Positions 76 through 39,371 of a stretch of DNA of 48,329 nt are shown here, piece after piece. A model generated the notes under the pieces. That model worked only from the letters and a program-made list of their open reading frames with translations. It made no database searches and was not told where the DNA came from. The stretch is from a bacterium UBP17_UBA6191 (GTDB lineage Bacteria > Muiribacteriota > UBA6191). The translations under genes were made by a program, and so were the position numbers. The DNA lies in the NCBI GenBank assembly GCA_002422125.1, contig DITF01000082.1:1-48329 (forward strand). The letters are read 5' to 3'. How positions within the stretch are numbered: position 1 is the stretch's first letter; each line of letters opens with the position of its first letter.

Positions 76-1464
76 TTAAAGCGCTTTCTGAAACAAAGTA
101 AATACCACAAGACTTAAAATCAGACCAATTAGTCCAACCATTAAACCAGCTTTAAGCATATCTGATTGCGAAACACGGTTACTGGCATAGGCTAACGCAT
201 TTGGGGGGGTTGAAACGGGAAGAGCCATTGCCAATGAACAGCTAAAACAACTCACAAGGATCAAAACAGTGGCTCCACTTTCTCCCCACTGCATTCCCAT
301 TGCCGCAACCAAGGGCAATACCAGATTGGCGGTAGCCGTAGAGGACATAAAATTTGATAGGACAAAACACAAAATGGCAAAAATGACCGACATCATCACC
401 ATACTTAAGGAACCCAGAGGCAGATTTTGAACAATTAGACTTGAAAGCCCTGTTTTCTCCATAGAGTCCCCTAAGGCGACCCCTCCAGCAACCAGCCACA
501 AAACATCCCAGCTCATATCCCTAAGTTCAGGTTTACCCACAATTTTTGTCGCCGAAAATATACATACTGGCAATAAGGCCACTGTATAGGAGTTTAACCC
601 ATGCCAGGCCCCTGTAAGCCAAAGCACCACTGTTAATGCACACACAACATATACTACATAAGCATCAACAGATTTCAAAAACCGGCCCGTCATATCGATC
701 TGAATTGATTTAGTCGCCGAGGGAAACATGACTATCAAAATGACCCATAACAAAAATAGAATGAATACCATGTAGGGCACTGCAAACTGCATCCAGCCCA
801 TAAATGAAACTGGATGAATTTCCATCAGATATTTTAAGGCAATGGCATTAGGTGGAGTACCTATAGGGGTGCCTAACCCACCAATATTGGCCGCAAATGG
901 GACCGCAAGAATCAGGGCTTTCTGTAATGGATCTCCTTGAGACAAGCCAGAAATTACGGGCATTACGATGGCCAGCATCATTGCTGTTGTAGCCGTATTT
1001 GACATAAACATCGAAAACACGGCTGTAATTAAAATCAATCCCAGCAAAACCATTTTAGGATTTTGTCCAAAGGGTTTTAATAAAACCCTAGCCAAATTTT
1101 TGTCGAGTTTAACCTTGGTGGCGGCTGAGGCCAGAAAAAAGCCACCTAAAAACAAGATTAGAATCGGGGAAGCAAACACTCCCAGAATTTCTTCCCAGCT
1201 TAAGGGATTTTGTCCAGGACCAAGAGCAGGAATCAAACTTAATGGTCGATTGGATAACATCATTAGTTGTAAAAAAATTATCCACAGGGAGGCCGCGTAA
1301 ACTGGAAACGGTTCTAAAACCCAAGCCGAAACCGCAAAAACAAAAATCGACATTACCCGCAGGTGAATCTCAGAAAAACCCTCTGGTAAGGCTGAGACTG
1401 GAATCATGAGCACTAAAAGTGGTGCAAAAATTACAAAAAGTAGTCTCCAGTTTTTCATAAACAA
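76..1464 (-). CDS. DASS/SLC13-family anion:Na+ symporter (di/tricarboxylate or sulfate type)
   Basis: 462-aa polytopic membrane ORF. It has two hairpin SNT-type motifs (FMSNTATTAMM and FMSSTATANL). It also has paired GTPIGTPPNAIA / PVSTPPNALA motifs, characteristic of DASS (VcINDY-like) carriers. Confidence 0.8.
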   Translation of the reverse strand: MFMKNWRLLFVIFAPLLVLMIPVSALPEGFSEIHLRVMSIFVFAVSAWVLEPFPVYAASLWIIFLQLMMLSNRPLSLIPALGPGQNPLSWEEILGVFASPILILFLGGFFLASAATKVKLDKNLARVLLKPFGQNPKMVLLGLILITAVFSMFMSNTATTAMMLAIVMPVISGLSQGDPLQKALILAVPFAANIGGLGTPIGTPPNAIALKYLMEIHPVSFMGWMQFAVPYMVFILFLLWVILIVMFPSATKSIQIDMTGRFLKSVDAYVVYVVCALTVVLWLTGAWHGLNSYTVALLPVCIFSATKIVGKPELRDMSWDVLWLVAGGVALGDSMEKTGLSSLIVQNLPLGSLSMVMMSVIFAILCFVLSNFMSSTATANLVLPLVAAMGMQWGESGATVLILVSCFSCSLAMALPVSTPPNALAYASNRVSQSDMLKAGLMVGLIGLILSLVVFTLFQKAL

Positions 1465-8449: not shown

Positions 8450-9820
8450 CTACCTTTCAAAATCTGTCTCCAGGCGTTTTTTTAAGTCTTCAATCCTTTG
8501 TGCTTCCCAGTCATCAGAATGAAGAATTTTTTGAATTTTGTTCATGGCATGAATCACCGTACCATGATCCTTTCTACCAAAACCTGAACCTATCTGTTGC
8601 AAGGTTAAGTTAGTCAGTTCACGAATCAAAAACATGGCTACTTGCCTTGGATAAGCTACACTCTGATTTCTACTTTCAGATAATAAATCCTCAAGTTCAA
8701 TCCCATAAAATTTCGCCACTTCAGATTGGATAGTTTCCATGCTCAGCCTGGGTCGATTATTCAAAAATGAACACAAGGCTTCCTGAATCAATGTCCTATC
8801 CGCTTCCCGATTTCGAAAAGATACTTGGGTTGCCACTGTGATGAAGGCCCCACGAATATCCCTGACATTGGAACTAACCGAGATGGCCAGATACTCTATT
8901 GCATCATTGCTCATGGGAATTCCATGGTGTAAAACCAGATTTTTAATGATCGCCATTCGTGTTTCTAAATCCGGCAATTGAATGTCCGCAACCGATCCAC
9001 CCTTAAACCGTGACATCAAACGATCATTGAGATTTTTGATTTGATTCGGAGTTCTATCCGATGCCAGCACAATCTGTTTTTCCTGCTCAAACAGGCGATT
9101 AAAGGAATGATAAAATTCTTCTTGAAAAGATTCTTTGTCGGATAAAAATTGAATGTCGTCGACCAATAAGGCATCAACCTCGCGAATCCTGCGAAACTTG
9201 GAAAAATTCTTACTTCGAATGGCATCCACAAACTCATTTAAAAGGGTCTCACAGGAAATATATCGAACCACCTTGTGCGGAAACTCTTTTTTAATCTGAT
9301 TGCCAATGGCATGTAAGAGGTGAGTCTTGCCAAGCCCAACCTCTCCATAAATGAACAAAGGATTGTAACTAATTCCTGGATTGGCAGCTACCGCCTTGGC
9401 AATTTCATAAGCATAGCGGTTGGAACCACCCATAACAAAGGAATCGAATGTAAAAGTGGAATTGAGATTAGAGGCAATATCATCTACAAGGCTCTCTTCA
9501 GACACCTTGGCTTGTGCAGTAGGCAAAACCGATGTTTCCAAGGAAACTACCTCATGAACACTCCAACTAAGCTTAAATTTTTCTCCAACAAAAAACATTT
9601 CCTGAAAAAATCGGGCTATCCTATCGTCTAATCTTCTTTCTCGCAAGATGGAAATCATCAAATCTGAGGGAGCAGCCATTTCCACCCCATCATCAGTGAT
9701 GGAGAAAATTCTGATTCCTTGCAACCAGAGCAAATCTGATGGCTCAAGTTGATTTTGCAAGCTTTTTTGCATCTCAGCCAATACTTTATTGTAATCCAAA
9801 TATCTTAGAAAGTTATTCAC
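8450..9820 (-). CDS. dnaA: Chromosomal replication initiator protein DnaA
   Basis: 456 aa. AAA+ Walker A is GEVGLGKTHLLHA and Walker B is ALLVDDIQFL. The domain IV signature is GRKDHGTVIHAMNKI. The annotated start is GTG at 9820, inside a DnaA box; an in-frame ATG 16 codons downstream is an alternative. Confidence 0.95.
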   Translation of the reverse strand: MNNFLRYLDYNKVLAEMQKSLQNQLEPSDLLWLQGIRIFSITDDGVEMAAPSDLMISILRERRLDDRIARFFQEMFFVGEKFKLSWSVHEVVSLETSVLPTAQAKVSEESLVDDIASNLNSTFTFDSFVMGGSNRYAYEIAKAVAANPGISYNPLFIYGEVGLGKTHLLHAIGNQIKKEFPHKVVRYISCETLLNEFVDAIRSKNFSKFRRIREVDALLVDDIQFLSDKESFQEEFYHSFNRLFEQEKQIVLASDRTPNQIKNLNDRLMSRFKGGSVADIQLPDLETRMAIIKNLVLHHGIPMSNDAIEYLAISVSSNVRDIRGAFITVATQVSFRNREADRTLIQEALCSFLNNRPRLSMETIQSEVAKFYGIELEDLLSESRNQSVAYPRQVAMFLIRELTNLTLQQIGSGFGRKDHGTVIHAMNKIQKILHSDDWEAQRIEDLKKRLETDFER

Positions 9821-13409: not shown

Positions 13410-15269
13410 TTAAATCTGTTGGCGCTTTAGGTGGTTGATTAAGAGGGCTAGATCACTTTGCCGCACTCCAGAAATTAAGGATGCCTGTGCAATATCCTGG
13501 GGTAGGACTTCTTTGAGCTTTTGGCGGGATTCTTTAGATAGTGCCACAATCAGATCATAATTCATATCAGTGGGAATTCGTAATTGTGTTAGTCCTTCCC
13601 GTTCTTTAAGAATATCCTTTTGTTTTTGTATGTATCCAGAATATTTGACTTCGATCTCGGCCTCTTTTTTGACTTCATCCCCAAATGTGCTTAGAAAATT
13701 GTGTAATTTTGGTTCGATAATTTCCAAGGATTGTAGGTTTAATTCTGGTCGTCTGAGTAAATCCAGTAGAGATTTTTTCCCTGTATAGGCACTGGTTACA
13801 ATGGAGTGGGGGATACTGTCACCACAAACCTGAGTGTGCTGCAAAAAAGTCTGAATTTGATCCATACCTTTTCGTTTTGATTTCAGATTGTCTAATCGTT
13901 CTTTACTGGCAAGGCCGGAAGCATAGGCTATAGCTGTGAGACGCATATCGGCATTGTCGTGACGAATAAAAGTCCGATGCTCTACAAGCGATGTAAACAT
14001 GCGATATGGTTCCTTAGTACCCTTGGTTACCAAATCATTAATGAGCACGCCAATGTAGCTATTTTCGCGCGAGACAGCAATCGGTGGTTTTTCTTGAATT
14101 TTATTGGCGGCATTTATGCCTGCAATGATTCCTTGGGCTGCTGCTTCTTCATATCCGCTGGTTCCGTTGACCTGTCCTGCAAAATAAAGATTTTTTATGA
14201 TTTTGCTTTCCAGGCTCATAAAAAGTTGAATGGGATTAAAAAAGTCGTATTCCACGGCATAACCAGGTCTTAACATTTTGGCATTCTCTAAACCAGGTAG
14301 GGTATGTACCATTTTGATTTGTACGGAATGTGGCAAAGAACTGGAAAATCCCTGTAAATAGATTTCATTGTTAAAACGGGATTCTGGCTCTAGGTATAAT
14401 AAATGAGATGGTTTATCGGGAAATTTTACAAATTTGTCTTCGATACTTGGGCAGTAGCGTGGACCCAGGCCTTCAATCTGACCAGAATACAAGGGCGACA
14501 GATGTAGATGCTCCTCTATTACCTTACGAGTGTTGTCGGTTGTATAAGTGATGTGGCAGGGAATCTGAGGCAGGGACCTTTTTTGCGTGAGGTAAGAAAA
14601 ATGCGGCATAGGTTCTTCCCCAGCCTCAATTTCCAGACCCCTGTAATCAATGCTGGAATCAAGAATTCTGGGGGGAGTGCCAGTTTTAAGACGACCCTTT
14701 TTGATTCCAAATGAAGTGATACTTGTGGATAGATGGGTAGCTGGTGGTTCTCCAATGCGTCCCGCAGCTATCTGAGTCTGTCCAATATGACATTTTCCGT
14801 TCAGAAATGTTCCGGTGGTAACAATGACGGTCTGGGCATGGATTTCTTGGCCAGAAATAGTTTTAACTCCATATACCTGATCGTCTTTGACTAAAATATC
14901 TGTGACCACAGCCTGAAGCAGACTAAGATTTTTTTCCTGCTCCAAAGTGCGTTTCATCATGGCCTGATAGAGAATTTTGTCAGCCTGAGCCCTGAGGGCC
15001 TGAACCGCTGGACCCTTTTTGGAGTTTAAGGTACGAATTTGCAATAAGGTTTTGTCAATGGTCAAACCCATTTGCCCACCTAAGGCATCAATTTCTCGTA
15101 CTAAATGGCCCTTGGCTGTCCCGCCAATGGATGGGTTACAGGGCATTAAGGCAATGTTGTCAAGATTAAGAGTTATACAAAGTGTTTGATGTCCCATGCG
15201 CGAAGTAGCCAAGGCGGCTTCTAATCCAGCATGTCCCGCTCCGATTACAATAACTTCATAGCGTTTCAT
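13410..15269 (-). CDS. mnmG: tRNA uridine 5-carboxymethylaminomethyl modification enzyme MnmG (GidA), canonical copy
   Basis: 619 aa. FAD motif is VIGAGHAGLEAA. MPCNPSIGG, GPRYCPSIEDK, GYEEAAAQG, KEPYRMFTS..HR and the C-terminal helical domain ending ISGVRQSDLALL are also present. Confidence 0.93.
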   Translation of the reverse strand: MKRYEVIVIGAGHAGLEAALATSRMGHQTLCITLNLDNIALMPCNPSIGGTAKGHLVREIDALGGQMGLTIDKTLLQIRTLNSKKGPAVQALRAQADKILYQAMMKRTLEQEKNLSLLQAVVTDILVKDDQVYGVKTISGQEIHAQTVIVTTGTFLNGKCHIGQTQIAAGRIGEPPATHLSTSITSFGIKKGRLKTGTPPRILDSSIDYRGLEIEAGEEPMPHFSYLTQKRSLPQIPCHITYTTDNTRKVIEEHLHLSPLYSGQIEGLGPRYCPSIEDKFVKFPDKPSHLLYLEPESRFNNEIYLQGFSSSLPHSVQIKMVHTLPGLENAKMLRPGYAVEYDFFNPIQLFMSLESKIIKNLYFAGQVNGTSGYEEAAAQGIIAGINAANKIQEKPPIAVSRENSYIGVLINDLVTKGTKEPYRMFTSLVEHRTFIRHDNADMRLTAIAYASGLASKERLDNLKSKRKGMDQIQTFLQHTQVCGDSIPHSIVTSAYTGKKSLLDLLRRPELNLQSLEIIEPKLHNFLSTFGDEVKKEAEIEVKYSGYIQKQKDILKEREGLTQLRIPTDMNYDLIVALSKESRQKLKEVLPQDIAQASLISGVRQSDLALLINHLKRQQI

Positions 15270-17122
15270 GCTAAACCCTGTTTACAGGCATGTATTAAAA
15301 GGGCAATTTCTGCTGAGGAAATCCCCTCAATTTTTGCGGCCTGCCCCACACTAAAAGGTTTGACGGATTGGATTTTTTCTTTGGTGCTGGCACTTAATCC
15401 ATCAATTCCAGCATAATAAGTATCTTCATTAAGGATCAGTCCATCCAGTTCATCAGCATGTTCCATTCTGCGTTTTAGCTTTTGTAAAAAAAAGTCGTAT
15501 TTAATTCTGGTTTCAATTTTGGAAACTAAATGTGTTTGGGAAATGCAGGCGTAGCCAAAATGTTTCAGATCACGGTAGCGGATTTCTTCACGGCTTAAAA
15601 GATTGGCCAGAGAAATCGTGTTTTTGAATGCTGAAGAGTTGAGCTCACTTAGCTTGGCCAAAACTTCTTTGGTAGGTCTGAGTAGAGTGTTTTTTAAGGC
15701 CTCTACTTCCTGATTTACGATCTGTTTTTGCCACTCTTCAAAATCGTAGCGATCTTTGGTAATCAAACCTAGTTCATAACCAATTGCGGTTAGCCTTTCT
15801 TCGGCATTGTCGGAACGAAGATGTAGGCGAAACTCGGAAGATGATGTGGTCACTCGGAGTGGCTCGCTTCTAGGATTGGTAACCAGTTCGTCTACCATTT
15901 CCGCCAGATAGGAAGTTGTACTTTTTAAAACAAAGGGGGCTTTGCCATGGGCTTTATGGTGGGCATTGATTCCGGCGATTAAACCTTGGGCAGCAGCTTC
16001 TTCATACCCGCTTGTTCCATTGATCTGACCAGCGGTAAACAGATTGGCAACCTGTTTGAATTCCATATTCTTTTTTAACTGGGTGGCATCCACAGCATCG
16101 TATTCAATAGCATATCCGTAACGCACAATGCTGGCGTTTTCTAGCCCTGGTACGGAATGAACCACAGCCTCCTGGGCTTCAGGTGGCATAGAAGTGGTCA
16201 ACCCTAACAAGTACCATTCATCGTGAAAATCGGATTCCGGTTCCACAAAGATATGGTGCATTTCAATGTCTGGGAACCGGATGACCTTACGATCGATGGA
16301 AGGACAGTGTTTAGGACCATGCTGAGTAATATTACCAATCTTTAAGGGTGAATCATGGAGATTCTGTTTTACAGCATCGACTGTGGCTGCAGTGGTGTGA
16401 GTCAGATAACACTGTCTTTGTTTTTGACGGGAGATATCTTTGGTAAAAGTTAAAATACCCGAATCCCCTGGCATTGGTTTCATTTTACTAAAATCGATGC
16501 TGTTTCCGGCTATTCTAGGCGGTGTAGCTGTTTGTAACCGATGTATACGGATGCCAAGCTCCACTATGCTGTCAGAAAGATGAATTGATGCAGTGTTTCC
16601 AGAGGGGCCGCCGGGGGTTTTACTGTGACCCAAAATGATGTGTCCATTTAAAAATGTCCCCGTACATAAAATGACCGAACGGGCATGGTATTCAATGCCA
16701 GTGATGATTCTAACCCCGTAGACAGATTGATTTTGGTGCAGCAGGGCTACTGCCTCTCCTTGAACCAAGGTAATATTTGGGTGGGCTTCCAGTTTGGCTT
16801 TAACATGCAGATGATAACGAACCTTGTCGGATTGGGCTCTTAAAGCCTGTACAGCCGGGCCTTTAGATTCATTTAAGATACGAATTTGAAGGTAGGTTGC
16901 GTCTACCTGTTTACCCATCTGTCCACCTAAGGCATGGATTTCACGGACAAGATGACCTTTACCGGGACCACCTACAGATGGGTTGCAAGGCATCATGGCT
17001 ACACATTGCAATGAGGTAGCTAGTAGTAAGACTTTAGACCCAAGATTAGCGGCCGCAAAAGCGGCTTCTGTGCCAGCATGTCCGGCACCAACAACAATTA
17101 CATCAAAATTTTGTGGGCTCAT
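15266..17122 (-). CDS. Second, diverged full-length MnmG/GidA-family paralog
   Basis: 618 aa. It retains VVGAGHAGTEAA, MPCNPSVGG and GYEEAAAQG. The signature segments have drifted: GPKHCPSIDRK versus GPRYCPSIEDK, and SEPLRVTTSSSEFRL versus KEPYRMFTS. Both conserved Cys contexts and the C-terminal domain (IEGISSAEIALL) are kept. Its stop overlaps the downstream mnmG start in ATGA. Confidence 0.85.
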   Translation of the reverse strand: MSPQNFDVIVVGAGHAGTEAAFAAANLGSKVLLLATSLQCVAMMPCNPSVGGPGKGHLVREIHALGGQMGKQVDATYLQIRILNESKGPAVQALRAQSDKVRYHLHVKAKLEAHPNITLVQGEAVALLHQNQSVYGVRIITGIEYHARSVILCTGTFLNGHIILGHSKTPGGPSGNTASIHLSDSIVELGIRIHRLQTATPPRIAGNSIDFSKMKPMPGDSGILTFTKDISRQKQRQCYLTHTTAATVDAVKQNLHDSPLKIGNITQHGPKHCPSIDRKVIRFPDIEMHHIFVEPESDFHDEWYLLGLTTSMPPEAQEAVVHSVPGLENASIVRYGYAIEYDAVDATQLKKNMEFKQVANLFTAGQINGTSGYEEAAAQGLIAGINAHHKAHGKAPFVLKSTTSYLAEMVDELVTNPRSEPLRVTTSSSEFRLHLRSDNAEERLTAIGYELGLITKDRYDFEEWQKQIVNQEVEALKNTLLRPTKEVLAKLSELNSSAFKNTISLANLLSREEIRYRDLKHFGYACISQTHLVSKIETRIKYDFFLQKLKRRMEHADELDGLILNEDTYYAGIDGLSASTKEKIQSVKPFSVGQAAKIEGISSAEIALLIHACKQGLA

Positions 17123-18086: not shown

Positions 18087-18824
18087 TCACAGATTAGAGG
18101 ATCGGCGTAACACTCCGCCAAAAAATCGTACTGCGATGGGATTTCCTTCTAAATTGAGGGCTGAGGACTGACTTAGTTCAAAGCCGATGGGGGTTTCAAT
18201 GGCACCAGGAATTAGGACATTTACAATTACGGATAGCAGTGTGCCGCGATAAATTCTTCGCGGTTGCACTTCTTGAGTCAGGCTGTGCCCAATCATGTAA
18301 TATCCGCAGAAGTTGGTACAATCAGGAAAGTTTGTGAGAAAGTTCTCATCATTGCGACCGACAAGAATCGCAAACTGTGGGTCAAGATAAGCCCGAAGCC
18401 GTACCGATTCAGTGCCTTCAATCAAGGAAATATTATTGCTGGAACTATCTACCACCCTAAGAATATTACGGTTGTATCTGAGCAGTAGAGGCAGGTCATA
18501 AATTTGATTGGCGCCCGTATCCAGATCCTTTATACGAATGTCGAGCTGAAATACATTGGCACCTAAGGATACCGAGGATAAGGCCAGATATATGGCATCT
18601 GAAGGCAGCTCCGATTCCTGCAACTCCGTACCCATACCAACATTTTGTGGAAAAGCAGAGTCGCGAAAATTAAAGGAAAATGTGGCTGGAGTAGATTGGT
18701 CCTGGGAGTTTGTACCAGAACTTTTTTCATCAAAGATAGAGCCATTGGAGGCAGCACACCCAAAAAGACCAAGGCCACAAAGGATTAAAAGTAGGATGAG
18801 ACTACTGTAATGCTTCATTACCAT
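18087..18824 (-). CDS. Lipoprotein with a cohesin-like beta-sandwich domain (tentative)
   Basis: The signal peptide carries a lipobox (LGLFGC). The mature part shows cohesin-like alternating-strand patterns: FQLDIRIKDLDTGANQIYDLPLLLRYNRNILRVVD, and RGTLLSVIVNVLIPGAIETPIGFEL...LNLEGNPI. It overlaps the stop of the dockerin-bearing protease gene. Confidence 0.45.
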   Translation of the reverse strand: MVMKHYSSLILLLILCGLGLFGCAASNGSIFDEKSSGTNSQDQSTPATFSFNFRDSAFPQNVGMGTELQESELPSDAIYLALSSVSLGANVFQLDIRIKDLDTGANQIYDLPLLLRYNRNILRVVDSSSNNISLIEGTESVRLRAYLDPQFAILVGRNDENFLTNFPDCTNFCGYYMIGHSLTQEVQPRRIYRGTLLSVIVNVLIPGAIETPIGFELSQSSALNLEGNPIAVRFFGGVLRRSSNL

Positions 18825-21800
18825 AAGCCTTTAACATAAGTTGCATGTCCTGTTCATTCACAATTCCATCAGCATTAAAATCTAAAAGGCAGTTGTCTTT
18901 TTTGGATACAGTACATAAACCCTGCCGAATATGTCGAGCCATAATGGCAATATCAAATGGATCAATTCGATTGGTTTGTGGAAAAATAAAGTCAGCGACA
19001 ACCTTGCTGGCATCAAGATTAACCATGCGAATGGTGATAGGCTGGGTAGGTTGCATACGAATAGAATCAATTTCAACGCGGATGTCAGCGGTGACGCTGA
19101 TTAGGGAAGGAATGGAGCGGATAATCTGAGTCCAGGAGCCATCGGCATTAGAGGTGATAGCTCCCTGTAAAACCCCAATGGTAGTAAAAATGGAAACAAT
19201 GGAAGTATCAGGTAGAAAAAGAGGCTCATTGGCCACGGTGCGAGGATAGATAGTTATTTTGGCTACATTCTTACCATTGGCATATATGACAGGAGTGTCT
19301 ACAAATATCAGAGTCTTATCTGGATCCGCTGAACCCGTTTTTGTAAATTCCAGTTCCTTGGTGATTAAAGATAACCGATTATCTACAAACAGGGTAATAA
19401 AAGCACGGGTAGAAAAGTTTGTGCTGCGAATGGACAATTCATAGGTACCATCAAGGTTATTAAAAAAGGATACCTGTTGTGAACCTTCTGGGCGCAAGAA
19501 CTGAGTAACCCCGTCTGGCTGAAGGGCTTTTCGTAAAAACTCTCCACTACTGATACTGGCTTTGATTCTGGTGGCATCAAGATTTGGCCCCATCCTACTA
19601 CCATCAGGAAAGGTGGGGATCACCGTGATTCTTGTGGTTGATATGCCATCTGCAGGTAATACATCGCTATCCAGATTTACCTCTAAGCGGTTTTCGTTAA
19701 TATCCAGAATTTCTACCCTTGCTGGTTTGCCAATGTCTTGAAATCCCGAAGAATTAATGCGGCCAGAAATTGTGACAGGGCAGCTTGTAGTTACAAATCC
19801 AGTGACGCGACTCCTTAACACTGTTGTAAGTCGAATGGAGTTGGCCACACTGATTGGGGAGGGATTAATGCTTAGATTGGTGGGTGAGGTCTCCTGATTA
19901 TTGGCATTTCTTAACGAGGCTAGAGTGTCGTGACAACCATCAGAACTGCCTAAGGACAAAAAGGCTAATCCACTAATGTCAGCATTAACTCGGGTATTGT
20001 CACTGAATCTGGGAATCAGCTCGACTTCAATTTCTTCTCCACTATTCATTGCCAAATAGCGTTTACTGGCCACAATTTCGGTCAGGGCGGGGCTGGAAGT
20101 ATCAAATTTTAGAACTTCTTGTTGGGTTAGTGGAATATCTACAATTGAAACTCTCATGTTAAAGCTACCAACACCAGGTTGGGCCGGTATAAAAGAACGA
20201 TAAAACGGATTACCCAAATATGTAATGGAGTCGCTTTTTCGAGGCGATGGAAAGGGATCAATTAAGCCATCGTTCATGATGATAAATGGTCCGGTAGTAC
20301 CGGCTCCAAACAGGGGCAAACCAGTGCTGCCTGTCAGAATTACATTAAAGTCAGAAGGCTGAAAGATAAAAGGTATAGGGGTCTGATCAGCAAAGGCTGG
20401 AAAAATCCTAACCTCAGCCACAGCAGTCGCTATCCCAGGAAAAGTTATGTGTACAGTACCTTGAGACAAAAGAAAAGACGAGCCTGTGGGTGATATGGAT
20501 TGGAAATTAATGGCTGGCTGTAGAGCTAAGGCAACCCCATCCAGATTGATCTGAATCTCGGCATTATCCTCTCCCGCAAATTGTACCGTGGTCTGATAGA
20601 GTTTTCCGATGGAATCAGTGATTTCAGCAATGGGGCTAGTGACTACGGGGCTGTTTTGGGAGCTTATGGAAGTCACAAAGGATGTATCGGGGGTTACTGT
20701 GATTGGGGCAAGGACTCTTTGATCGTTGGGGAATCTGGGTTCGATTTTAAAGGTTCCAGGAGCAGAATAGGCCTTGTTGGCATCTCCAAAGACTTGCCTT
20801 CCGCTGTTTTTAATGCCAAACACAATGTCTGGAACAAATGTAACCAGGCTTCTGTCACTATTGGCCTTACTGATAAACAGTAGGGAACTGACAAAAATTT
20901 GGGTTGTACCAGTTTCACTATCCAGACTGACATTAAGTCGAGTGAGACAGCTATCGGGAGCCCCTGTTCTTAAAGGGGCATATATTTCAAAGGCATAATA
21001 GGGAGTGCTGCTTTGAATATAGGTTGGCTGAATGGAAGTGATGGCAGTAGTGCGGGAAAAACTGGGTTGGGCAATTGTTTGACATAGGGTGGCACGACTA
21101 GACAGATTGTTTTGTGAATAGTCAGCCGTATTGGCAGGTACCATAGTCATGGTGAGCCGTTCGGATAAATCGGTATCGACAACCTGATTGCTGTTGTTTC
21201 TGGCAATCAGTTTGCCTCTAGTCCAGGAAAGGTTTAAATCCTCCCCGGCATTTTTTCCATTTGGATAGAGAAACAATTGATCAACCTCAAGGCTGGAACC
21301 GCTCAGATTTACATTGGAATTGCCCTGGTTAGTTACAAAGTTGACAGTTTGTCTTCCATTGACGGGAAGAAAAAAGGCTACGGCCGTATCGGAACCACTG
21401 GTAGGCTCTAAGGCTGATTCGGCCTGATTGTGCCAGAATTCCAAGGGAAATGTCCTGACTCTATTTAAAAAACTTTGTCTTAGGGTGTCAGGCACGGCAT
21501 TTAGAAAGACAAAGTCACTTTGTAGTTGCACCTGACGATTAGGATAGTTTGGGGCAGCAATTGGAAATGGTTCAATAAAGGCTTCATAGTTGCCTCTAGG
21601 AACTCCTAAGACCTCATATCTTCCGTCAAAATTGATTCCCGATCCGGTGATTCCCGAAATGGAGGAATACATTTTTGAGCGATCCTCAACATCCCAAATT
21701 AAGACATGGGCCCCGTTAATCACTTCTCCGGCAATGGCCCCGGACTGAATTTGCCCACTAACAAAACCATTAAAATTCCCACTACCACTAGGATAGGTAA

Positions 21801-22437
21801 AACTTAAGAGAGAAATATCGTCTGGAGCTAGAGTAAGTTGGTCATTGGAGTAAAATGGAAACATGGTGCTTTCAGAAATTTGGGCATTTTTGAGCACAAA
21901 AGCGCGAATGGGTGAGTGATCAAAGCCTAAAAGATGGCCAAATTCATGGGTAGCTACCCCTGATAAAAGAATGCGGTTGGCCAAAGGATCAGAATTAGCC
22001 ACGGTATTCACAAACACAAAATCCTGTTTGTTAAACATAATATCGGCATCCACAATTTCCCCGTTATCGTTTCGGGCCGTAGTAAAAGTGATTGCAATTA
22101 CACCAGGATTAAAATTGCTGCCACTACCAAAACTAATATGATTCATCATGTCAGGAGGGGAACCACCAAGGGCAGTAGGTGAGGATGCCGTTGTTAATAC
22201 GGTAAAGCTTACCGAGGCATCGGCTACACTTTGCCATTGGTTAGCGGCAATCTGAATTTCTGACATGACCTCAGCATTGGATAAAGAGCTTGCGGTAGAA
22301 GCATTTACATGCACGGTAATGGCACTATTGGGCCAGCGCATGCGTTCAAACGAACCAGTTGCAGTTCGGACAAAAAAGGGAATACCTGCTTGCAGAACAG
22401 AAACCTGAACCAGCAGAAGTACCCAAAAGTAGCGCAT
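18802..22437 (-). CDS. Secreted multidomain metzincin (matrixin/M10-like) metalloprotease with a C-terminal dockerin-like module
   Basis: 1211 aa with a signal peptide. The zinc motif is HEFGHLLGFDHSP (HExxHxxGxxH) with a Met-turn candidate STMFP. A CarboxypepD_reg-like beta-sandwich follows (GAHVLIWDV...DGRYEVLGVPRGNYEAFIEP). The long middle region looks Ig-like and beta-rich. The C-terminus has a two-segment dockerin/EF-hand-like module (TNRIDPFDIAIMARHI and DFNADGIVNEQDMQLMLKAYG). Confidence 0.8.
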   Translation of the reverse strand: MRYFWVLLLVQVSVLQAGIPFFVRTATGSFERMRWPNSAITVHVNASTASSLSNAEVMSEIQIAANQWQSVADASVSFTVLTTASSPTALGGSPPDMMNHISFGSGSNFNPGVIAITFTTARNDNGEIVDADIMFNKQDFVFVNTVANSDPLANRILLSGVATHEFGHLLGFDHSPIRAFVLKNAQISESTMFPFYSNDQLTLAPDDISLLSFTYPSGSGNFNGFVSGQIQSGAIAGEVINGAHVLIWDVEDRSKMYSSISGITGSGINFDGRYEVLGVPRGNYEAFIEPFPIAAPNYPNRQVQLQSDFVFLNAVPDTLRQSFLNRVRTFPLEFWHNQAESALEPTSGSDTAVAFFLPVNGRQTVNFVTNQGNSNVNLSGSSLEVDQLFLYPNGKNAGEDLNLSWTRGKLIARNNSNQVVDTDLSERLTMTMVPANTADYSQNNLSSRATLCQTIAQPSFSRTTAITSIQPTYIQSSTPYYAFEIYAPLRTGAPDSCLTRLNVSLDSETGTTQIFVSSLLFISKANSDRSLVTFVPDIVFGIKNSGRQVFGDANKAYSAPGTFKIEPRFPNDQRVLAPITVTPDTSFVTSISSQNSPVVTSPIAEITDSIGKLYQTTVQFAGEDNAEIQINLDGVALALQPAINFQSISPTGSSFLLSQGTVHITFPGIATAVAEVRIFPAFADQTPIPFIFQPSDFNVILTGSTGLPLFGAGTTGPFIIMNDGLIDPFPSPRKSDSITYLGNPFYRSFIPAQPGVGSFNMRVSIVDIPLTQQEVLKFDTSSPALTEIVASKRYLAMNSGEEIEVELIPRFSDNTRVNADISGLAFLSLGSSDGCHDTLASLRNANNQETSPTNLSINPSPISVANSIRLTTVLRSRVTGFVTTSCPVTISGRINSSGFQDIGKPARVEILDINENRLEVNLDSDVLPADGISTTRITVIPTFPDGSRMGPNLDATRIKASISSGEFLRKALQPDGVTQFLRPEGSQQVSFFNNLDGTYELSIRSTNFSTRAFITLFVDNRLSLITKELEFTKTGSADPDKTLIFVDTPVIYANGKNVAKITIYPRTVANEPLFLPDTSIVSIFTTIGVLQGAITSNADGSWTQIIRSIPSLISVTADIRVEIDSIRMQPTQPITIRMVNLDASKVVADFIFPQTNRIDPFDIAIMARHIRQGLCTVSKKDNCLLDFNADGIVNEQDMQLMLKAYGNEALQ

Positions 22438-32939: not shown

Positions 32940-32968
32940 TTGAAAATCAATTTCAATAGGAGTATATT
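32940..32968 (+). promoter_or_regulatory. Near-consensus sigma70-type promoter
   Basis: TTGAAA (32940-32945), a 17-nt spacer, then TATATT (32963-32968). The predicted TSS is about 32975. Confidence 0.5.
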
Positions 32969-32974
32969 CAACCT

Positions 32975-33055
32975 GTCCTGATGATGAAACAGTCCCTTTG
33001 TGATTGTGGATTCCATCTCCTGTTTTGACCCCCGCCTCGGCGGGGGTTCTTTTTT
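32975..33055 (+). ncRNA. Candidate ~80-nt small transcript (sRNA, or leaderless 15-aa micro-ORF MMKQSLCDCGFHLLF at 32981-33028)
   Basis: It is bounded by the promoter above and by a strong intrinsic terminator. It has no recognised RNA family and the boundaries are inferred. Confidence 0.3.
33029..33055 (+). terminator. Rho-independent terminator
   Basis: GC stem CCCCCGC (33029-33035) pairs with GCGGGGG (33040-33046) around a 4-nt loop CTCG, followed by TTCTTTTTT. It is orientation-specific: the opposite strand has no T-tract. Confidence 0.8.
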
Positions 33056-33202
33056 AAAACAAATTCCTAAGTAAAATTACTAAAGTGTCGAGTTAGTAAA
33101 ATACTACTGCATGATCGCTTGATGTTTCTATTGATTCTGATGTCTAATGAGATCGTGTGGCATTAGGTTTCTCCACACTGGTATGTGAATTGAAGGGATA
33201 AA

Positions 33203-33787
33203 ATGAGGAATGTCTTCTGGATGGTTCTTGTTTGTACCCTCTTTTTACTTGCAGGCTGCGGTGGTGGGGGAGGCGGAGGCGATGGAATTTCCGAGCTTCC
33301 TAATGCGCCTAGCCCTGGGTCGCCGGCCCAAAATCCTGTCATTCCCTTTCAATCTGTGTCAGTAACCCCATCCGATGATGCCCGAATCGATAAACGGGAG
33401 TCTGTGTGTGTGGAGCTTGAGTCGGCAGGCTATTTTAAGTTAACCATTAACAATCAGGTGATAGTGGATCAGTACTTTTTGCATGCAAGCAATCAAAGGT
33501 TAAAATTGCCTTACACCTACTGTCATTCCTTGGCGACTTATTTTAATCCACAAAATCCGCGAGTTGTGGTTCAGGTGGATTCCAGAAATGAGACAAATAC
33601 TGCGACTGCCAGCAAAATTGCAGTACTGCATTATTCTGAAGTTTCTCGTGGCCTCGCAGGTGTCTCTTCTCCCATTGGCCAACCGGAACTGTTTTCAACG
33701 AAATTGGGAATGTGGTTTGGAAGCAGTGTGGCTGTGGATTCGTTATCAGTGTCTGATGCTCTGGTTCAGCGACTGGCTGGTAAATGA
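33203..33787 (+). CDS. Lipoprotein with a poly-Gly tether, first gene of the fibre operon
   Basis: The signal peptide and lipobox LLAGC are followed by GGGGGGGDG. The 194-aa ORF has an ATGA overlap with the fibre gene start. Confidence 0.6.
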   Translation: MRNVFWMVLVCTLFLLAGCGGGGGGGDGISELPNAPSPGSPAQNPVIPFQSVSVTPSDDARIDKRESVCVELESAGYFKLTINNQVIVDQYFLHASNQRLKLPYTYCHSLATYFNPQNPRVVVQVDSRNETNTATASKIAVLHYSEVSRGLAGVSSPIGQPELFSTKLGMWFGSSVAVDSLSVSDALVQRLAGK

Positions 33788-36700
33788 TGAAAATAATCTT
33801 TAGAATCTTAACCTTGGTTTTTGCTCTTCTGCCAGAGGTTTGGGCATTTGATTATTTTGTGTATTCGGGAGCCCTGCTTGATAGAAATGGTTTTGCCATT
33901 GTGGTCAACTCGACAATTAACTTTGAGATTTCTTTATATGATTCGGCCTCAGGTGCCAATTCAGCTTACAAACAACAGTTTGATTCAGTGCCCGTGAAAA
34001 ACGGCTTGTTCAAACTTAGGATTGGTCCAGGGCTCCCCGATCTAAACCGCTTTAATTTTATGGAGTTAGTTGTTGATGGGGTTCCTTTGGACTCACGAAT
34101 CAGTTTATTGCCAAACCCTTTGGCGATTGGGGCTAATCGGGCCAATATATCAGAAAATAGCGTACGATTTGGGGGAATGACCACACAGGAGTTTCTGGCC
34201 TTGTCATCCACGGGTGGGGTTGGCCCAACCGTAGCTCTGACGAGGGTAGAGGTTTTAGAATCTCAGATGAGTGATGTCAGGGCTCGGGCACTGTTCACCA
34301 ATGAAACAGCCACAGTAACGGCATCGATTGTCATGGATAGCGTCACCGGTAGATTGCAGTTTCAAGGTTCCATTCCAGGATCAACCCCCAGTACCAGAAT
34401 TTTGGTATACAACTCTTTGGGGCAATCAGCTTTCACAGTCAAATCTGATGGAGAGGTCATTGCCAGTAAGTTTACGGGAAATGGTTCCGGTCTTACCAAT
34501 GTTGAGGCAGATAAACTAAGGCAGGTAACAATTGTTGGTACCGGAGACATTACCTTAGTTGGTGGGTCTGTGTTAATGGGTACAAATTCAGGGGATGGAG
34601 CAGGTCCTGGAACCATTCCCAATGCCGGCCCTGGGGTAACGGGACTATTAACTGGGGATGATTGGATTCGCTTTAACAATAACACTGGTGGTTCTGGGGG
34701 CAGTACGATTCCCACCAATGTTTTGGTTAAGACAGACATTGTAGATAACTTGATTACTAGTGCCACAGATAAGGTTTTGTCAGCCTCACGGGGCGTGTTT
34801 ATTGCTCAGGAGCTGCAAACCTTAAGAACGGATTTGAATGCTGTTGCGGCAGCTAATGGAGCACCAGTTACATTGACTAAAAATGATGTTGGTCTGGGAA
34901 ATGTTGCCAACCTAAATGTGCAGACTGCTTGGCAACAAAACAAAGGTGTTTCGATTGCATCCGATCTGTTTAAGGCTATTGATTCCGATGGTCTAAAACT
35001 TCAGGCCGCAGATGGTACGGGTATTCAGGTTAGACCTTCAGGACGGGTGGGCATTAATTCCTCTTCTCCTGCGGCGGCTTTAGAAGTGAAAGCCACAGGC
35101 AGTTTTCATGTTTTTGGGGCCTATGCGGCAGGAGATTCTACTCCGGCTATGTTTGTAACCACGGCTGGTTTTGTTGGAGTTCGCATGCAAAACCCGGTGC
35201 ATGAACTGGATGTGGCTGGGACAATTCGAGCCCAGACCTTAAGAGGAGATGGCTCCAATATTACTGGGATCACCAAGGCGCAAATCGGTTTAACCAATGT
35301 ACCAAATACCAATATTGCCTATGCAAACCCCATCGCAGCCGATGCCTTTAATGCCACCGAAGTCGGACATTTGAGGGCTGGTAGATTATCCGATGGTACC
35401 CAGCCCTGGAACAATAATGAGGCCACTCTGGCTCCTGGGACTGTGAATGATTATCTTAGAGGGGATCGAACCTGGCAGCTTTTAAATAAAGGGGCGGTTG
35501 GTTTAAGCAATGTCACAAACAATGAGCAGTTAGCCAAGGCTCAAAATTTAAGTGATCTCCCAGATAAACCCCAGTCCCGGACCAATCTTGGTTTGGGTAC
35601 AATCGCTACCCAGAACTCCAATACGGTAGCAATTACGGGAGGAACCGTTAATGGTACAGTCATTGGGGGAGCCACACCGGCGGCAGCAACCTTTACCACC
35701 GTAAATGCCACCACTTTTATTGGAGACGGTTCACAGCTTACGGGCTTAAATATTCCTTCAGCGGGCACTATTGCATCCCAGAATTTTAATGCTGTCTCTC
35801 TTACAGGTGGTAGTATTAACAATATTCCGATTGGCACAGCTACCCCATCTACAGGTAGATTTACCACGGTTACGGCCAATTCATTTATTGGGGACGGTTC
35901 ACAACTCACTGGTATCACCAAGGCATCCATTGGACTTGGCAATGTACCTAATACCAATATTCAGTACTCATCCGCTATTGCAGCCGATCAGTTTAATGGT
36001 ACCGAGGTCGGGAATTTACGGGCCAATCGTTTAGCTGATGGTACTGAACCCTGGGCCAATCGAGAGCCCCTAATCTCAAGCGGAACAACCAATCAGTTTT
36101 TTCGTGGTGATAAAACCTGGCAGACCTTATCGGCTAGTCAATTCAGCGCAACTGAAGTGGGCAATTTGAGAGCCAACTTTTTAGCCGATGGCTCAACCCC
36201 TTGGACTAACAAAGAAAACTCCATTACCGCGGGTACTACAGCCCAGTATTTTCGCGGTGATAAGTCTTGGCAAACTCTGGATAAAACGGCAGTGGGTCTA
36301 AGCAATGTCCCTAATACAAATATTCAATATTCTTCGGCCATACCAGCCGATCAGTTTTTATCAGGTGAGGTCACCAATCTTCGTGCTTCCCAACTAGCCA
36401 ATGGTTCTACTCCTTGGACTCTTAAGGAGAATGCGATTACCGCAGGCACCACGGCCCAGTATTTTCGCGGCGATAAAACTTGGCAGACCTTGGATAAGGC
36501 AGCAATTGGTCTTTCCAATGTTCCCAATACCCATATTCAGTACTCCACCGCTATTGCCGCTGATCAGTTTTTATCAGGTGAGGTCACCAATCTTCGTGCC
36601 TCACAATTAGCCAATGGCTCTACTCCCTGGACAGGTAAAGAAAATGCCATTACCGCAGGCACTACAGCCCAGTATTTTCGTGGTGATAAAACCTGGCAGA

Positions 36701-38784
36701 CCTTGGATAAAACGGCAGTCGGTTTGAATAATGTTCCCAATACCCATATTCAGTATTCTTCAGCTATTGCCGCCGATCAGTTTTTAGCTGGTGAGGTCAC
36801 CAATCTTCGTGCCTCGCAGTTGGCTGACGGTTCCACTCCCTGGACGGCCAAGGAAAATGCCATAACAGCAGGAACCTCACTTCAGTATTTCCGCGGCGAT
36901 AAAACCTGGCAGACCTTAAATGCCACAGCCGTGGGGCTGGCAAATGTTACCAATGACTTGCAGCTAAAACGGGCTTCTAATTTATTGGATTTACAGGATG
37001 TTAATGCAGCCAGAACAAACCTTGGACTTGGAACTATGGCTGAGCAGAATGCCTCTGCCGTTGCCATCACGGGTGGTAGCATTAATGCCACAACCATAGG
37101 GATCTCTAACGCATCTCAGGCCAGTTTTACGGTGCTTACGGCCCAAAGTATGAGAGTGACGGGCTCTGTTACCATCACCCAGAGTCTGACAGTTACCGGC
37201 AATGTAACGGCGGCCTTTTTTTATGGTGATGGCTCCAATCTGACAGGTCTCCCAAACAGTGGAAGCATCGCGGCTCAGAATTCGGATAACATTTCCCTAA
37301 CTGGTGGCACGATTAACAATATTGCAATTGGTGCTAGCACAGCCTCTGCGGGGCGGTTTACTACAGTCACGGCAGTCGATGGATTTTATGGAACCATTAA
37401 AACGGCTCACCAACTTGATATCACCAGAGTTGGTACTTTAGAGAGCCTAAATGTCAGTGGGGCCACCACTTTTGCCGCTGGTCTTGAGGTCACAGGCACA
37501 GTTAATGCCACGGGATTTTCTGGCAGTGGTTCATCACTCACTGGGGTGGTAAAAAGTAGTGGTGCTGAAAATATTTCCGGCGTAAAAACCTTTCAGGATG
37601 GAATTGTCTTGCAGGACTCTCCCAGTGTCTCTGATGGAACCATGAAATTTACCACGAGCTCAGGTTTTGAGGGCCGCAAAGATGGTAAGTGGGTTCCGCT
37701 GGCAGGGGCATTTAAAAATGAAATCCTAAATGATTTGGAGCCCTTCTCCAAAACCAACCATCTGGCACTGGCCAATCTTGTTCAGCATTCCGCTTCGGTC
37801 AAAATTGGATCAACTTGGTATGTAGTGTTTGCTAGTAACGGAATTGGAATACCAAACAGTGGTTTGAAACAATATACCTTTAACGAGTCCACAGGAAATT
37901 TAACAACTCAGTTTCAGATAAGTAATGTGGCTTATCAAAGAGTTTATTTAGAAGTAATTAACGGAGAGCATTATTGTTTTGCCTTAACCGGTCAAAATGG
38001 AGCTGCTGCCACCGGCCATATTTTTAAATGGGATGCAGTCAATAATCGTTTTGGGCCGGCAATTTTTCAAAGTCTTACCTTAGGTAACTCATATTCTTGG
38101 GAGTTTCGCCCAGTTACAATTGGTACGGACCACTTTATTTTATTTCCCTTTACGGGGGTCGCAGCGGCACCAACAACCTTGAATCAACGATTACGAGTTT
38201 ACAAATGGGACGGAGCGTCTTTTGTTGTACATCAGGATCTGGCGGCGGGAATCATCAATCAGATCTTAAGATTTGCGTCCAAAATTCTGCAGGTGGGTAG
38301 TAAGTACTATATGATTTTTGCTAGCACCCAGTTTGGAGCGGTGCTTTTTGAATACAACCCTGCGGCTGGAGGTTCATTTATATCCAGAGGCATTTTGAAT
38401 GGGACATTAATTGGTGATAATGGGCTGAGTGCGGAAATGTTTTCGATTGGCTCAGACTCCTATTTGGCAGTGGGTACACAAATTGCCACTGGCGATCTTT
38501 TGATTTTTAAATGGGATGGGGTTGATTTTGCCTTTTTTCAAAGAATCCGCAAAAAAGACCTGTATCCTTTAGCCAATCCTTTTGGGGTCATTTATGATGT
38601 AACCCACATGCAAAGAGGGGATGCCACATATCTTGTGCTGGCCTCGGAGTGGGTCGCATCAAGGGATGCCAGTCATCATCTACTGCGGTATGAGCCCTCG
38701 GAAAACCAATTCAAAATCAGCCAGCATTTATTGTGGGGGGGACAGTGGCTCAAAATATTGGAGCCCGTGGCAACGCCATCCTAG
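33784..38784 (+). CDS. Giant secreted phage-tail-fibre-like (chimeric trimeric-fibre-type) surface protein with a C-terminal beta-propeller tip
   Basis: 1666 aa with a signal peptide (ALLPEVWA|F). It carries iterated fibre motifs: F/L-x-GDGS-x-(L/I)-TG-(L/I) six times. NLSDLPDKPQSRTNLGLGTIATQN and NLLDLQDVNAARTNLGLGTMAEQN are present, as are (A/S)ITGG(T/S)(V/I)N and YFRGDKTWQTL repeats. The C-terminal ~350 aa forms six propeller-blade-like repeats. Confidence 0.8.
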   Translation: MMKIIFRILTLVFALLPEVWAFDYFVYSGALLDRNGFAIVVNSTINFEISLYDSASGANSAYKQQFDSVPVKNGLFKLRIGPGLPDLNRFNFMELVVDGVPLDSRISLLPNPLAIGANRANISENSVRFGGMTTQEFLALSSTGGVGPTVALTRVEVLESQMSDVRARALFTNETATVTASIVMDSVTGRLQFQGSIPGSTPSTRILVYNSLGQSAFTVKSDGEVIASKFTGNGSGLTNVEADKLRQVTIVGTGDITLVGGSVLMGTNSGDGAGPGTIPNAGPGVTGLLTGDDWIRFNNNTGGSGGSTIPTNVLVKTDIVDNLITSATDKVLSASRGVFIAQELQTLRTDLNAVAAANGAPVTLTKNDVGLGNVANLNVQTAWQQNKGVSIASDLFKAIDSDGLKLQAADGTGIQVRPSGRVGINSSSPAAALEVKATGSFHVFGAYAAGDSTPAMFVTTAGFVGVRMQNPVHELDVAGTIRAQTLRGDGSNITGITKAQIGLTNVPNTNIAYANPIAADAFNATEVGHLRAGRLSDGTQPWNNNEATLAPGTVNDYLRGDRTWQLLNKGAVGLSNVTNNEQLAKAQNLSDLPDKPQSRTNLGLGTIATQNSNTVAITGGTVNGTVIGGATPAAATFTTVNATTFIGDGSQLTGLNIPSAGTIASQNFNAVSLTGGSINNIPIGTATPSTGRFTTVTANSFIGDGSQLTGITKASIGLGNVPNTNIQYSSAIAADQFNGTEVGNLRANRLADGTEPWANREPLISSGTTNQFFRGDKTWQTLSASQFSATEVGNLRANFLADGSTPWTNKENSITAGTTAQYFRGDKSWQTLDKTAVGLSNVPNTNIQYSSAIPADQFLSGEVTNLRASQLANGSTPWTLKENAITAGTTAQYFRGDKTWQTLDKAAIGLSNVPNTHIQYSTAIAADQFLSGEVTNLRASQLANGSTPWTGKENAITAGTTAQYFRGDKTWQTLDKTAVGLNNVPNTHIQYSSAIAADQFLAGEVTNLRASQLADGSTPWTAKENAITAGTSLQYFRGDKTWQTLNATAVGLANVTNDLQLKRASNLLDLQDVNAARTNLGLGTMAEQNASAVAITGGSINATTIGISNASQASFTVLTAQSMRVTGSVTITQSLTVTGNVTAAFFYGDGSNLTGLPNSGSIAAQNSDNISLTGGTINNIAIGASTASAGRFTTVTAVDGFYGTIKTAHQLDITRVGTLESLNVSGATTFAAGLEVTGTVNATGFSGSGSSLTGVVKSSGAENISGVKTFQDGIVLQDSPSVSDGTMKFTTSSGFEGRKDGKWVPLAGAFKNEILNDLEPFSKTNHLALANLVQHSASVKIGSTWYVVFASNGIGIPNSGLKQYTFNESTGNLTTQFQISNVAYQRVYLEVINGEHYCFALTGQNGAAATGHIFKWDAVNNRFGPAIFQSLTLGNSYSWEFRPVTIGTDHFILFPFTGVAAAPTTLNQRLRVYKWDGASFVVHQDLAAGIINQILRFASKILQVGSKYYMIFASTQFGAVLFEYNPAAGGSFISRGILNGTLIGDNGLSAEMFSIGSDSYLAVGTQIATGDLLIFKWDGVDFAFFQRIRKKDLYPLANPFGVIYDVTHMQRGDATYLVLASEWVASRDASHHLLRYEPSENQFKISQHLLWGGQWLKILEPVATPS
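35911..36918 (+). repeat. Tandem coding repeats inside the fibre gene (213-bp / 71-aa unit)
   Basis: Three near-identical in-frame units lie at 36280-36492, 36493-36705 and 36706-36918 (DK(T/A)A(V/I)GL(S/N)NVPNT(N/H)IQYS..A.ADQFL.GEVTNLRASQLA.GSTPWT.KENAITAGT..QYFRGDKTWQTL). They are preceded by a truncated unit (36130-36279) and a diverged unit (35911-36129). An older diverged copy lies at 35266-35480. Confidence 0.9.
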
Positions 38785-39371
38785 AAGTTGATGAGTATAC
38801 TTATATTGTTCAGCCAAGATTCACATCACTTGCGGTAGCACCAGAGGTTGTTGCCCCGGAGTATGTCATTTTTCGTGGTGAGTTGAATTCCAAATACCTG
38901 TCTTCTCTGGCCGTGGGTCGGTTAGGTGTGGGGGTTGAGGTTCCGAGTGTGACCCTTGAGGTTAAAGGAAACACTTTTATTACCGGAGACTTAAATGTCA
39001 GCGGGACTAAAAACTTTAATATCCAGGATCCAAGATATAAAAATGATGTATCCAGAAGACTGGTGCATTCGGCCTTAGAGGGCTCAGAAGCTGCGGTGTA
39101 TTACCGAGGTCGGGCCAAACTGCAAAGGGGTCGCGTAACCATTCAATTGCCCGATTATTTTGAGGCTCTGACGGCCAAAGAAGAACGAACCGTACAGCTT
39201 ACCCCCATCAATGGATTTTCACCTTTGTTTTTGCATGGAGAGGTCGAAGACTCAAAATTTGAGGTCATGACAACGGTTCATGGTCGTGAGGATCAAGAAT
39301 TTTTCTGGGAGGTTAAGGCCGTCAGAAAAGACATACCAAGGCTTGAGGTTGAGAGAGTGGTTTATAAGTGA
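38733..39371 (+). CDS. Tail-fibre C-terminal-module ORF in the -1 frame of the fibre gene (possible frameshift extension, or a separate tip/chaperone protein)
   Basis: 212-codon open frame. The only in-frame ATG is about 34 codons from the stop. The track start is a GTG at 38733, inside the fibre ORF and with no SD. Content resembles tail-fibre ends: RLGVGVEVPSVTLEVKGN.FITGDLNVSGTKNFNIQDP....LVHSALEGSEAAVYYRGRAKL..GRVTIQLPDYFEAL. Confidence 0.55.
   Translation: MGGTVAQNIGARGNAILEVDEYTYIVQPRFTSLAVAPEVVAPEYVIFRGELNSKYLSSLAVGRLGVGVEVPSVTLEVKGNTFITGDLNVSGTKNFNIQDPRYKNDVSRRLVHSALEGSEAAVYYRGRAKLQRGRVTIQLPDYFEALTAKEERTVQLTPINGFSPLFLHGEVEDSKFEVMTTVHGREDQEFFWEVKAVRKDIPRLEVERVVYK

Follow-up and report, generated by a model that had tools for sequence, protein, structure and literature searches.

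The 48,329-nucleotide (nt) contig DITF01000082.1 of the bacterium UBP17_UBA6191 (assembly GCA_002422125.1), referred to here at its full length as the window, carries a locus for a phage-tail-fibre-like protein that we read, with good though not complete confidence, as a two-gene operon, in which a lipoprotein gene is followed by one fibre gene (33784-39371) that is broken by one missing base. As part of the same reading, and with the same confidence, the intact product of ~1,862 amino acids (aa) here is a secreted fibre derived from phage tail fibres and similar to the mosaic adhesive trimer (MAT) fibres of Bdellovibrio. An earlier interpretation made from the DNA letters alone (the sequence-only reading) had proposed three co-oriented, translationally coupled genes, the last of which was thought to encode a detached, second and different tip that could switch the specificity of the fibre. 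The three open reading frames (ORFs) are present at the same coordinates and all lie on the + strand:

33203-33787, + strand: ORF1, the lipoprotein gene, 194 aa
33784-38784, + strand: ORF2, the fibre, 1666 aa
38733-39371, + strand: ORF3, 212 aa
38735-38741, + strand: G7 homopolymer, the site of the frame break, inside the ORF2/ORF3 overlap

The stop codon of ORF1 and the start codon of ORF2 overlap by 4 nt (ATGA), whereas ORF3 is not confirmed as a third coupled gene. The latter is in the -1 frame relative to ORF2, with which it overlaps by 52 nt, and its frame is open from position 38694.

The evidence that ORF3 is the 3' end of the fibre gene comes from the ortholog MBW7876333.1 (P0017), a member of the 90%-identity cluster of the fibre, which is encoded by a metagenome-assembled genome (MAG) labelled Candidatus Cloacimonadota as one uninterrupted ORF of 1,858 aa. 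At the junction of the ortholog, ...SQHLLWGG|TVASAIGSRGNAILEV..., the ORF2 reading passes directly into the ORF3 reading, and the DNA alignment at the break (window TGGGGGGG-ACAGTG versus ortholog TGGGGGGGCACGGTT) contains one 1-nt gap immediately 3' of the G7 run. One extra base in the window, or a -1 slip on G GGG GGA, produces LLWGG|TVA, identical to the junction of the ortholog, and the trans-frame peptide of the fibre repaired in this way is LLWGGTVAQNIGAR. Since the ortholog is one continuous ORF, the propeller at the end of ORF2 and the tip encoded by ORF3 are successive parts of one chain and not alternatives, and a switchable specificity is therefore not upheld. The locus of the ortholog (L002) is syntenic with the window over a Big_5 gene, a 1,702-aa TPR gene (TPR1702), the lipoprotein gene and the fibre gene.

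ORF3 possesses neither a signal peptide nor a credible ribosome-binding site; no Shine-Dalgarno-like sequence is present 5' of its GTG codon at 38733, and the sole G-rich stretch is located 3 nt before the GTG at 38745. Together with the continuity of the ortholog, this means that ORF3 is not a detached or second tip. On the sequences compared, the "second tip" is an artefact of taking one frameshifted gene for two, and the result corrects a tempting misreading, in which the end of a single homopolymer-interrupted gene appears as a spare, swappable tip. ORF3 retains 209 stop-free codons, and the ratio of nonsynonymous to synonymous differences (pN/pS) from the ortholog is 0.065 for the ORF3-encoded tip and 0.078 for the shaft, with synonymous sites near saturation. 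As the tip is under purifying selection and ORF3 is stop-free, the functional form of the gene is the intact one, or was so until very recently. As a separate observation, synteny with the related locus stops right after the fibre gene, where the window continues with a TonB-dependent receptor gene (39381 onward) and L002 has an AAA-ATPase_like/PDDEXK_9 gene in its place (from 15597).

When the frame is repaired, the fibre gene can be divided into the following parts:

33784-33849, + strand: Sec signal peptide, residues 1-22, with predicted cleavage after VWA (MMKIIFRILTLVFALLPEVWA|FD)
33850-34188, + strand: N-terminal domain, residues ~23-135 (~110 aa), from pairwise and hidden Markov model (HMM) matches
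34189-37782, + strand: shaft of phage-tail-fibre-type repeats (~1,200 aa), from PHROG and tblastn matches and motif counts
37783-38742, + strand: EPTP-type beta-propeller, blades 1-6, residues ~1334-1653, from matches to Pfam and LGI1
38742-38918, + strand: probable seventh blade in the ORF3 frame, repaired residues 1654-1712, continuous with blade 6 in the ortholog
38919-39371, + strand: capping-loop motif LGVGVEVPSVTLEV, ~130-aa terminal tip domain and stop codon, in the ORF3 frame

The signal peptide, which had been recognized from the letters alone, is of the Sec type and has an equivalent in the ortholog. The N-terminal domain (N-domain) that follows is 29% identical (pairwise E 5e-8) to that of P0016, a 369-aa secreted protein with the same C-terminal tip, and with an HMM it was located at the N-terminus of 8 further fibres (E 1e-9 to 1e-53), which come from different phyla and carry the tip as well. 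Based on these matches, a signal peptide, this N-domain, a variable shaft and this tip constitute a recurrent architecture. A word-index search with the N-domain retrieved nothing, not even its own protein, and the homologue search with the whole fibre was saturated by repeat words and returned only the fibre itself and one weak match. In the shaft, the motifs on which the sequence-only reading was built recur (GDGSxLTG six times, RTNLGLG twice, AITGG(T/S)(V/I)N four times and YFRGDKTWQ six times), and a 213-nt unit forms a tandem array of 3.5 copies (36181-36917). The shaft matches PHROGs 38418 (E 5e-45) and 33513 (E 1e-39) as well as the tail collar fibre PHROG 25620 (E 3e-5), and tblastn identified 39 records from phages, for the most part minor tail proteins of actinophages, with 35-56% identity among the matches listed. 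The capping-loop motif occurs in three instances, at residues 422-435 and 464-477 and at repaired residue 1714. The homology of the shaft and the housekeeping neighbourhood of the gene agree with the earlier proposal of a secreted phage-tail-fibre-like protein outside any prophage.

The C-terminal ~330 aa of ORF2 had been described as a globular propeller and can now be assigned to the EPTP type. The Pfam family PF03736 is matched with 25.2 bits against a cut-off of 21, LGI1 (5y2z) is a weak match in the PDB (E 0.009), and an exhaustive search yielded 59 propeller homologues composed of EPTP-like blades. ORF2 contains six units of ~53 aa with starts at residues ~1334, 1385, 1439, 1497, 1548 and 1600, and the break falls at the expected start of a seventh; exactly seven blades are present in 34 of 58 homologues. 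The N-terminus of ORF3 displays the blade hallmarks YTYIVQP and YVIFRGE with the correct spacing, and judged from these motifs its first ~60 residues are probably the seventh blade. Like the EPTP/EAR propellers (PF03736; LGI1 5y2z), the propeller of the fibre thus has a blade motif above the Pfam threshold and seven-bladed homologues are common, but only two or three of its blades are recognizable by sequence, and it appears to be embedded in a fibre and followed by a further trimeric tip. Two blade arrays (6 and 7 detected blades) are present in the nearest propeller homologue, the phage tail-fibre protein P0020, and hence such propellers are used on fibres elsewhere. The combination of propeller and tip is confined to this lineage in the set of tip-bearing proteins drawn from the examined genome loci.

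For the terminal tip, 14 homologues with 38-52% identity were obtained. Domains of this type are encoded at 323 loci in genomes that represent species from many phyla of bacteria and archaea, and at no fewer than 581 viral loci (IMG/VR). The tip is always C-terminal in the genome loci examined, where the proteins that carry it measure 224-2,201 aa. It was matched by no Pfam or NCBIfam model, and a Peptidase_S74 domain is absent from the fibre (Pfam). An AlphaFold model based on 15 sequences predicts a compact beta domain with a predicted local distance difference test (pLDDT) score of 74.5 (core 80-93), for which Foldseek gave no match in the PDB at E <= 1e-3; partial likeness, with low template-modelling (TM) scores, is seen to C-termini of phage fibres and spikes and none to the solved MAT tips. 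In contrast to the PDB, BFVD contains 23 matches to the model (E <= 1e-3), which are phage minor tail and tail-fibre-like proteins. The tip is probably a beta-sandwich, of a type that is common on phage fibres. A further set of tip-bearing proteins, with lengths of 430-1,370 aa, shares a different N-terminus that has no signal peptide, such as MAEVKRMRYFDGLFLKQEEFNLEQNYHIRMRRL (L026, L032, L038, L044, L057, L071 (Methanoperedens), L059 (Methanosarcina), L030, L048 (Brocadiia), L009, L012, L043). These proteins may represent a second fibre class with another attachment module in archaea and bacteria. In P0006 (JGI (Joint Genome Institute) sequence, 285 aa, on a contig of 1274 nt), a Peptidase_S74 domain is followed by the capping loop and an ORF3-type tip. 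Such an arrangement is peculiar, as an S74 domain usually forms the C-terminus of its protein and is removed by cleavage.

The lipoprotein encoded ahead of the fibre has the lipobox LLAG|C followed by seven glycines, as had been pointed out before, and consists further of a Gly-rich and Pro-rich tether and a ~135-aa domain with two Cys residues. In the related locus, the ortholog of this lipoprotein is 89% identical (pN/pS 0.10) and its gene has the same 4-nt ATGA overlap with the start of the fibre gene; the dedicated lipoprotein partner of the earlier proposal is hence real and conserved in one related genome. No relatives beyond the signal and tether region were detected in PDB, Pfam, NCBIfam or PHROGs, the lipoprotein is not encoded upstream of other N-domain fibres, and two metagenome scans for it were empty. 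It is a concrete candidate for holding such fibres on the cell.

MAT fibres are defined by a signal peptide, a conserved ~130-aa beta-rich N-domain, a trimeric capping-loop shaft and an S74 or independently folding tip (PMC10769870). The N-domain is common to all 21 MATs of strain HD100, the consensus of the capping loop is V-G-G/N-pi-x-x-P-x-x-x-L, and further tip domains were considered possible in other bacteria by Caulton et al. 2024; the main text of that study does not mention a lipoprotein and leaves the anchoring of the fibres open (PMC10769870). The resemblance to MAT fibres suggested by the sequence-only reading is supported, as both the layout of signal peptide, N-domain, shaft and independent tip and the capping-loop motif agree with Caulton et al. 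2024 (PMC10769870). More specifically, the fibre resembles the NS74 subgroup of MATs in being chromosomally encoded, longer than 1,000 aa, phage-tail-fibre-like and provided with a signal peptide, an N-domain straight after it and a long shaft with capping-loop motifs of the form VGI[GN]xxxPxxxL, and its C-terminal tip is predicted by the model to be a non-S74, independently folding domain, that is, of the NS74 type. At the level of motifs, a profile of the tip-proximal region matches the sequences of five MAT crystal structures (8ond, 8oml, 8ol4, 8on4 and 8ojn; E 8e-8 to 2e-3), of which Bd2133 (8ond) is the best match (E 8e-8). In contrast to the MATs, the organism here is no Bdellovibrio (its relative bears the label Candidatus Cloacimonadota), the tip is matched by none of the solved MAT tips, an EPTP propeller is inserted ahead of it and a dedicated lipoprotein gene is located 5' of the fibre gene.

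Judging from sequence, the locus probably works like a MAT fibre and belongs to the broader family, though not necessarily to the MAT fibres in the strict sense. We hypothesize that the chains trimerize, that the N-domain would hold the trimer on the cell surface, possibly via the co-encoded outer-membrane lipoprotein, and that the propellers and the terminal tip would be displayed distally as ligand-binding modules, so that the fibre could mediate adhesion at the cell surface much as the MAT fibres of Bdellovibrio do. A MAT-like layout with signal peptide, N-domain, phage-type shaft and modular tip is thus found outside predatory bacteria, and MAT-like fibres can bear an EPTP propeller before a very widespread phage-type terminal domain. 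The fibre is otherwise fairly ordinary among known bacterial surface fibres, and it is the distal end composed of propeller and tip that is unusual.

Several points weigh against the reading of a lipoprotein gene followed by a single broken gene for a MAT-like fibre. The whole comparison was made with a single ortholog, and the MAT entries of the PDB that were compared cover C-termini only, which places the MAT N-domain outside the comparison. The lipoprotein is known from two related genomes only, and since it has no detectable relatives either, its anchoring role is a guess. A single-sequence AlphaFold prediction of the repaired C-terminus was unusable (pLDDT 40). HMM, hhalign and block scores give the seventh blade no significant support; however, blades 1, 4 and 6 are equally undetectable by these methods, and because their power is low, the null scores can be taken as neutral. 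The G7 allele is known from three contigs, which are not independent strains, as they are 100% identical, and possibly come from one site of origin. One of them is a JGI assembly of 454 and Illumina reads from a Syncrude tailings-pond sample, so that the break may be technical.

For the break itself, we lean towards a real, non-programmed loss of one base, although the available contigs do not allow a real mutation, a phase-variable state and a homopolymer miscall to be told apart. Translation of the gene as sequenced ends 14 codons past the G-run; deprived of its last blade and of the tip, the resulting 1,666-aa protein would probably misfold or fail to trimerize, which would make the allele OFF or defective. 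The terminal domain of phage fibres usually nucleates trimer folding, and because this domain is lost, the truncated product is probably non-functional. At most, the frame break could serve as an on/off switch of the fibre.

A sequencing or assembly artefact, in which the true sequence is one base longer (e.g. G8) and the gene intact in the organism, is possible, if on the unlikely side. The break coincides exactly with a 7-base homopolymer, ORF3 shows no decay, and the same G7 allele is present in the contig assembled from 454 and Illumina reads; 454 chemistry under-calls long homopolymers, and the three identical contigs do not add independent strains. On the other hand, the G7 run was obtained with two different assemblers, as besides the JGI assembly it is present in a contig named k141_, which follows the naming style of MEGAHIT, and MEGAHIT k141 contigs are usually built from Illumina reads longer than 141 nt. 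In addition, the only other run of seven or more G/C residues in the window (203-209) is located within an intact Na/sulfate symporter gene, which provides a small internal control.

It is rather unlikely that the break reflects phase variation, in which the length of the G-tract would shift by slipped-strand mispairing and the full-length fibre would be ON when in frame and OFF in the G7 state. As in phase-variable surface-protein genes, a poly-G run is present in the coding region exactly at the frame break, the G7 tract is kept in the ortholog, where it is in frame as G7+C, and purifying selection on ORF3 is strong in spite of the break. However, the tract is short and has no documented length variation, its length being the same in all three contigs, and the ortholog reads in frame with G7+C instead of a longer G-run. 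By our own estimate, two runs of seven or more G/C residues per 48 kb are close to chance expectation, and a tract of seven Gs ranks among the shortest for which variation is known in Campylobacter, Neisseria and Haemophilus. Programmed -1 ribosomal frameshifting on G GGG GGA, which would produce both the 1,666-aa and the ~1,862-aa protein from one mRNA, is very improbable: while the heptamer conforms to X XXY YYZ in the ORF2 frame and a -1 slip reproduces the ortholog junction exactly, no downstream stimulatory structure was found (z = +0.8 versus shuffles), the slip arrangement is not conserved, as the ortholog is in frame, and GGGGGGA is not among the efficient slip sites known in bacteria.

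The design of a modular shaft with a tip, including homologous shaft repeats and a homologous terminal domain, is shared with phage tail fibres and minor tail proteins, for which actinophage minor tail proteins, a tail-fibre-like protein of cyanophage P-SSM2 and PHROGs 38418, 33513, 17490 and 28536 were used as comparators. In contrast to these, the fibre of the window is equipped with a Sec signal peptide and paired with a lipoprotein, and it has no virion or tail genes nearby but a conserved housekeeping neighbourhood. As the sequence-only reading had remarked, there are no phage genes near the locus; phage, baseplate and sheath genes are absent from the 48-kb window, in which the neighbours scanned with Pfam are housekeeping genes, envelope genes or genes without a family match. 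That shaft and tip are homologous to phage tail proteins would also be expected of a tail-fibre gene left behind by a prophage, a tailocin or a contractile injection system, but we give such a remnant very little chance, given the signal peptide, the 4-nt overlap with the lipoprotein gene, the lack of phage, baseplate and sheath genes in 48 kb, the housekeeping synteny kept in the relative and the purifying selection on all parts. The weakest alternative, in which ORF3 is an independent, swappable second tip that alters the specificity of the fibre, is hardly tenable, because small stand-alone proteins with an ORF3-type tip do exist elsewhere (e.g. P0011, P0015 and L023, 243-294 aa) but have signal peptides of their own, whereas ORF3 has none and no Shine-Dalgarno-like sequence ahead of its GTG at 38733, its residues 1 to ~60 carry on the propeller of the ortholog, and the ortholog is a fusion.

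The two-gene operon is preceded by conserved elements, which are likewise found in L002 and include a promoter-like site and a terminator that fit the upstream mini-transcript proposed from the letters alone:

32940-32968, + strand: promoter-like site TTGAAA, 17 nt, TATATT, the best of the scan with 10/12 matches
32971-33056, + strand: ~85-nt leader or small RNA that ends in an intrinsic terminator, near-invariant in comparison with L002
33103-33133, + strand: second conserved intergenic block TGTCGAGTTAGTAAAATACTACTGCATGATC, 31 nt, 100% identical to L002 amid diverged spacer

L002 keeps the -35 hexamer and the key -10 positions of the promoter-like site. The terminator has a strong stem (33027-33048) followed by a T-run, and its pairing is kept in L002 through one compensatory (C-G to U-A) and one wobble change. 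Across the whole intergenic region, the window and L002 share 76% identity, even though synonymous sites in the flanking genes are close to saturation. Rfam gave no match for the upstream element or for the whole window, and the ~85-nt element is likely a leader/attenuator or a small RNA and may be new. It is tempting to combine these features into a single scheme, in which the G-run is an ON/OFF switch, the lipoprotein is the anchor of the N-domain and the 85-nt leader attenuates the operon of a MAT-like fibre in an uncultured lineage outside Bdellovibrio. That all of this applies jointly is improbable; if it did, the locus would be a self-contained, regulated surface-recognition device with a double distal module of three EPTP propellers and a phage-type tip.

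The setting of the locus is the region of the chromosomal origin, with dnaA, gyrB, gyrA, parB and two mnmG copies in the window. The sign of the guanine-cytosine skew flips at ~10 kb, beside dnaA (8450-9820), gyrB, gyrA and parB, and the window spans the chromosomal replication origin. PADLOC returned nothing relevant for the window. The two mnmG copies encode tandem MnmG/GidA paralogues (13410-15269 and 15266-17122, - strand) of 619 and 618 aa, which are both full-length and both strong matches to PF01134; such a tandem duplication adjoining the replication origin is unusual. A further large secreted or surface protein is encoded near the fibre locus at 18802-22437 (- strand), where a protein of 1,211 aa combines an N-terminal matrixin (M10) peptidase domain with an invasin-D3-like Ig domain.

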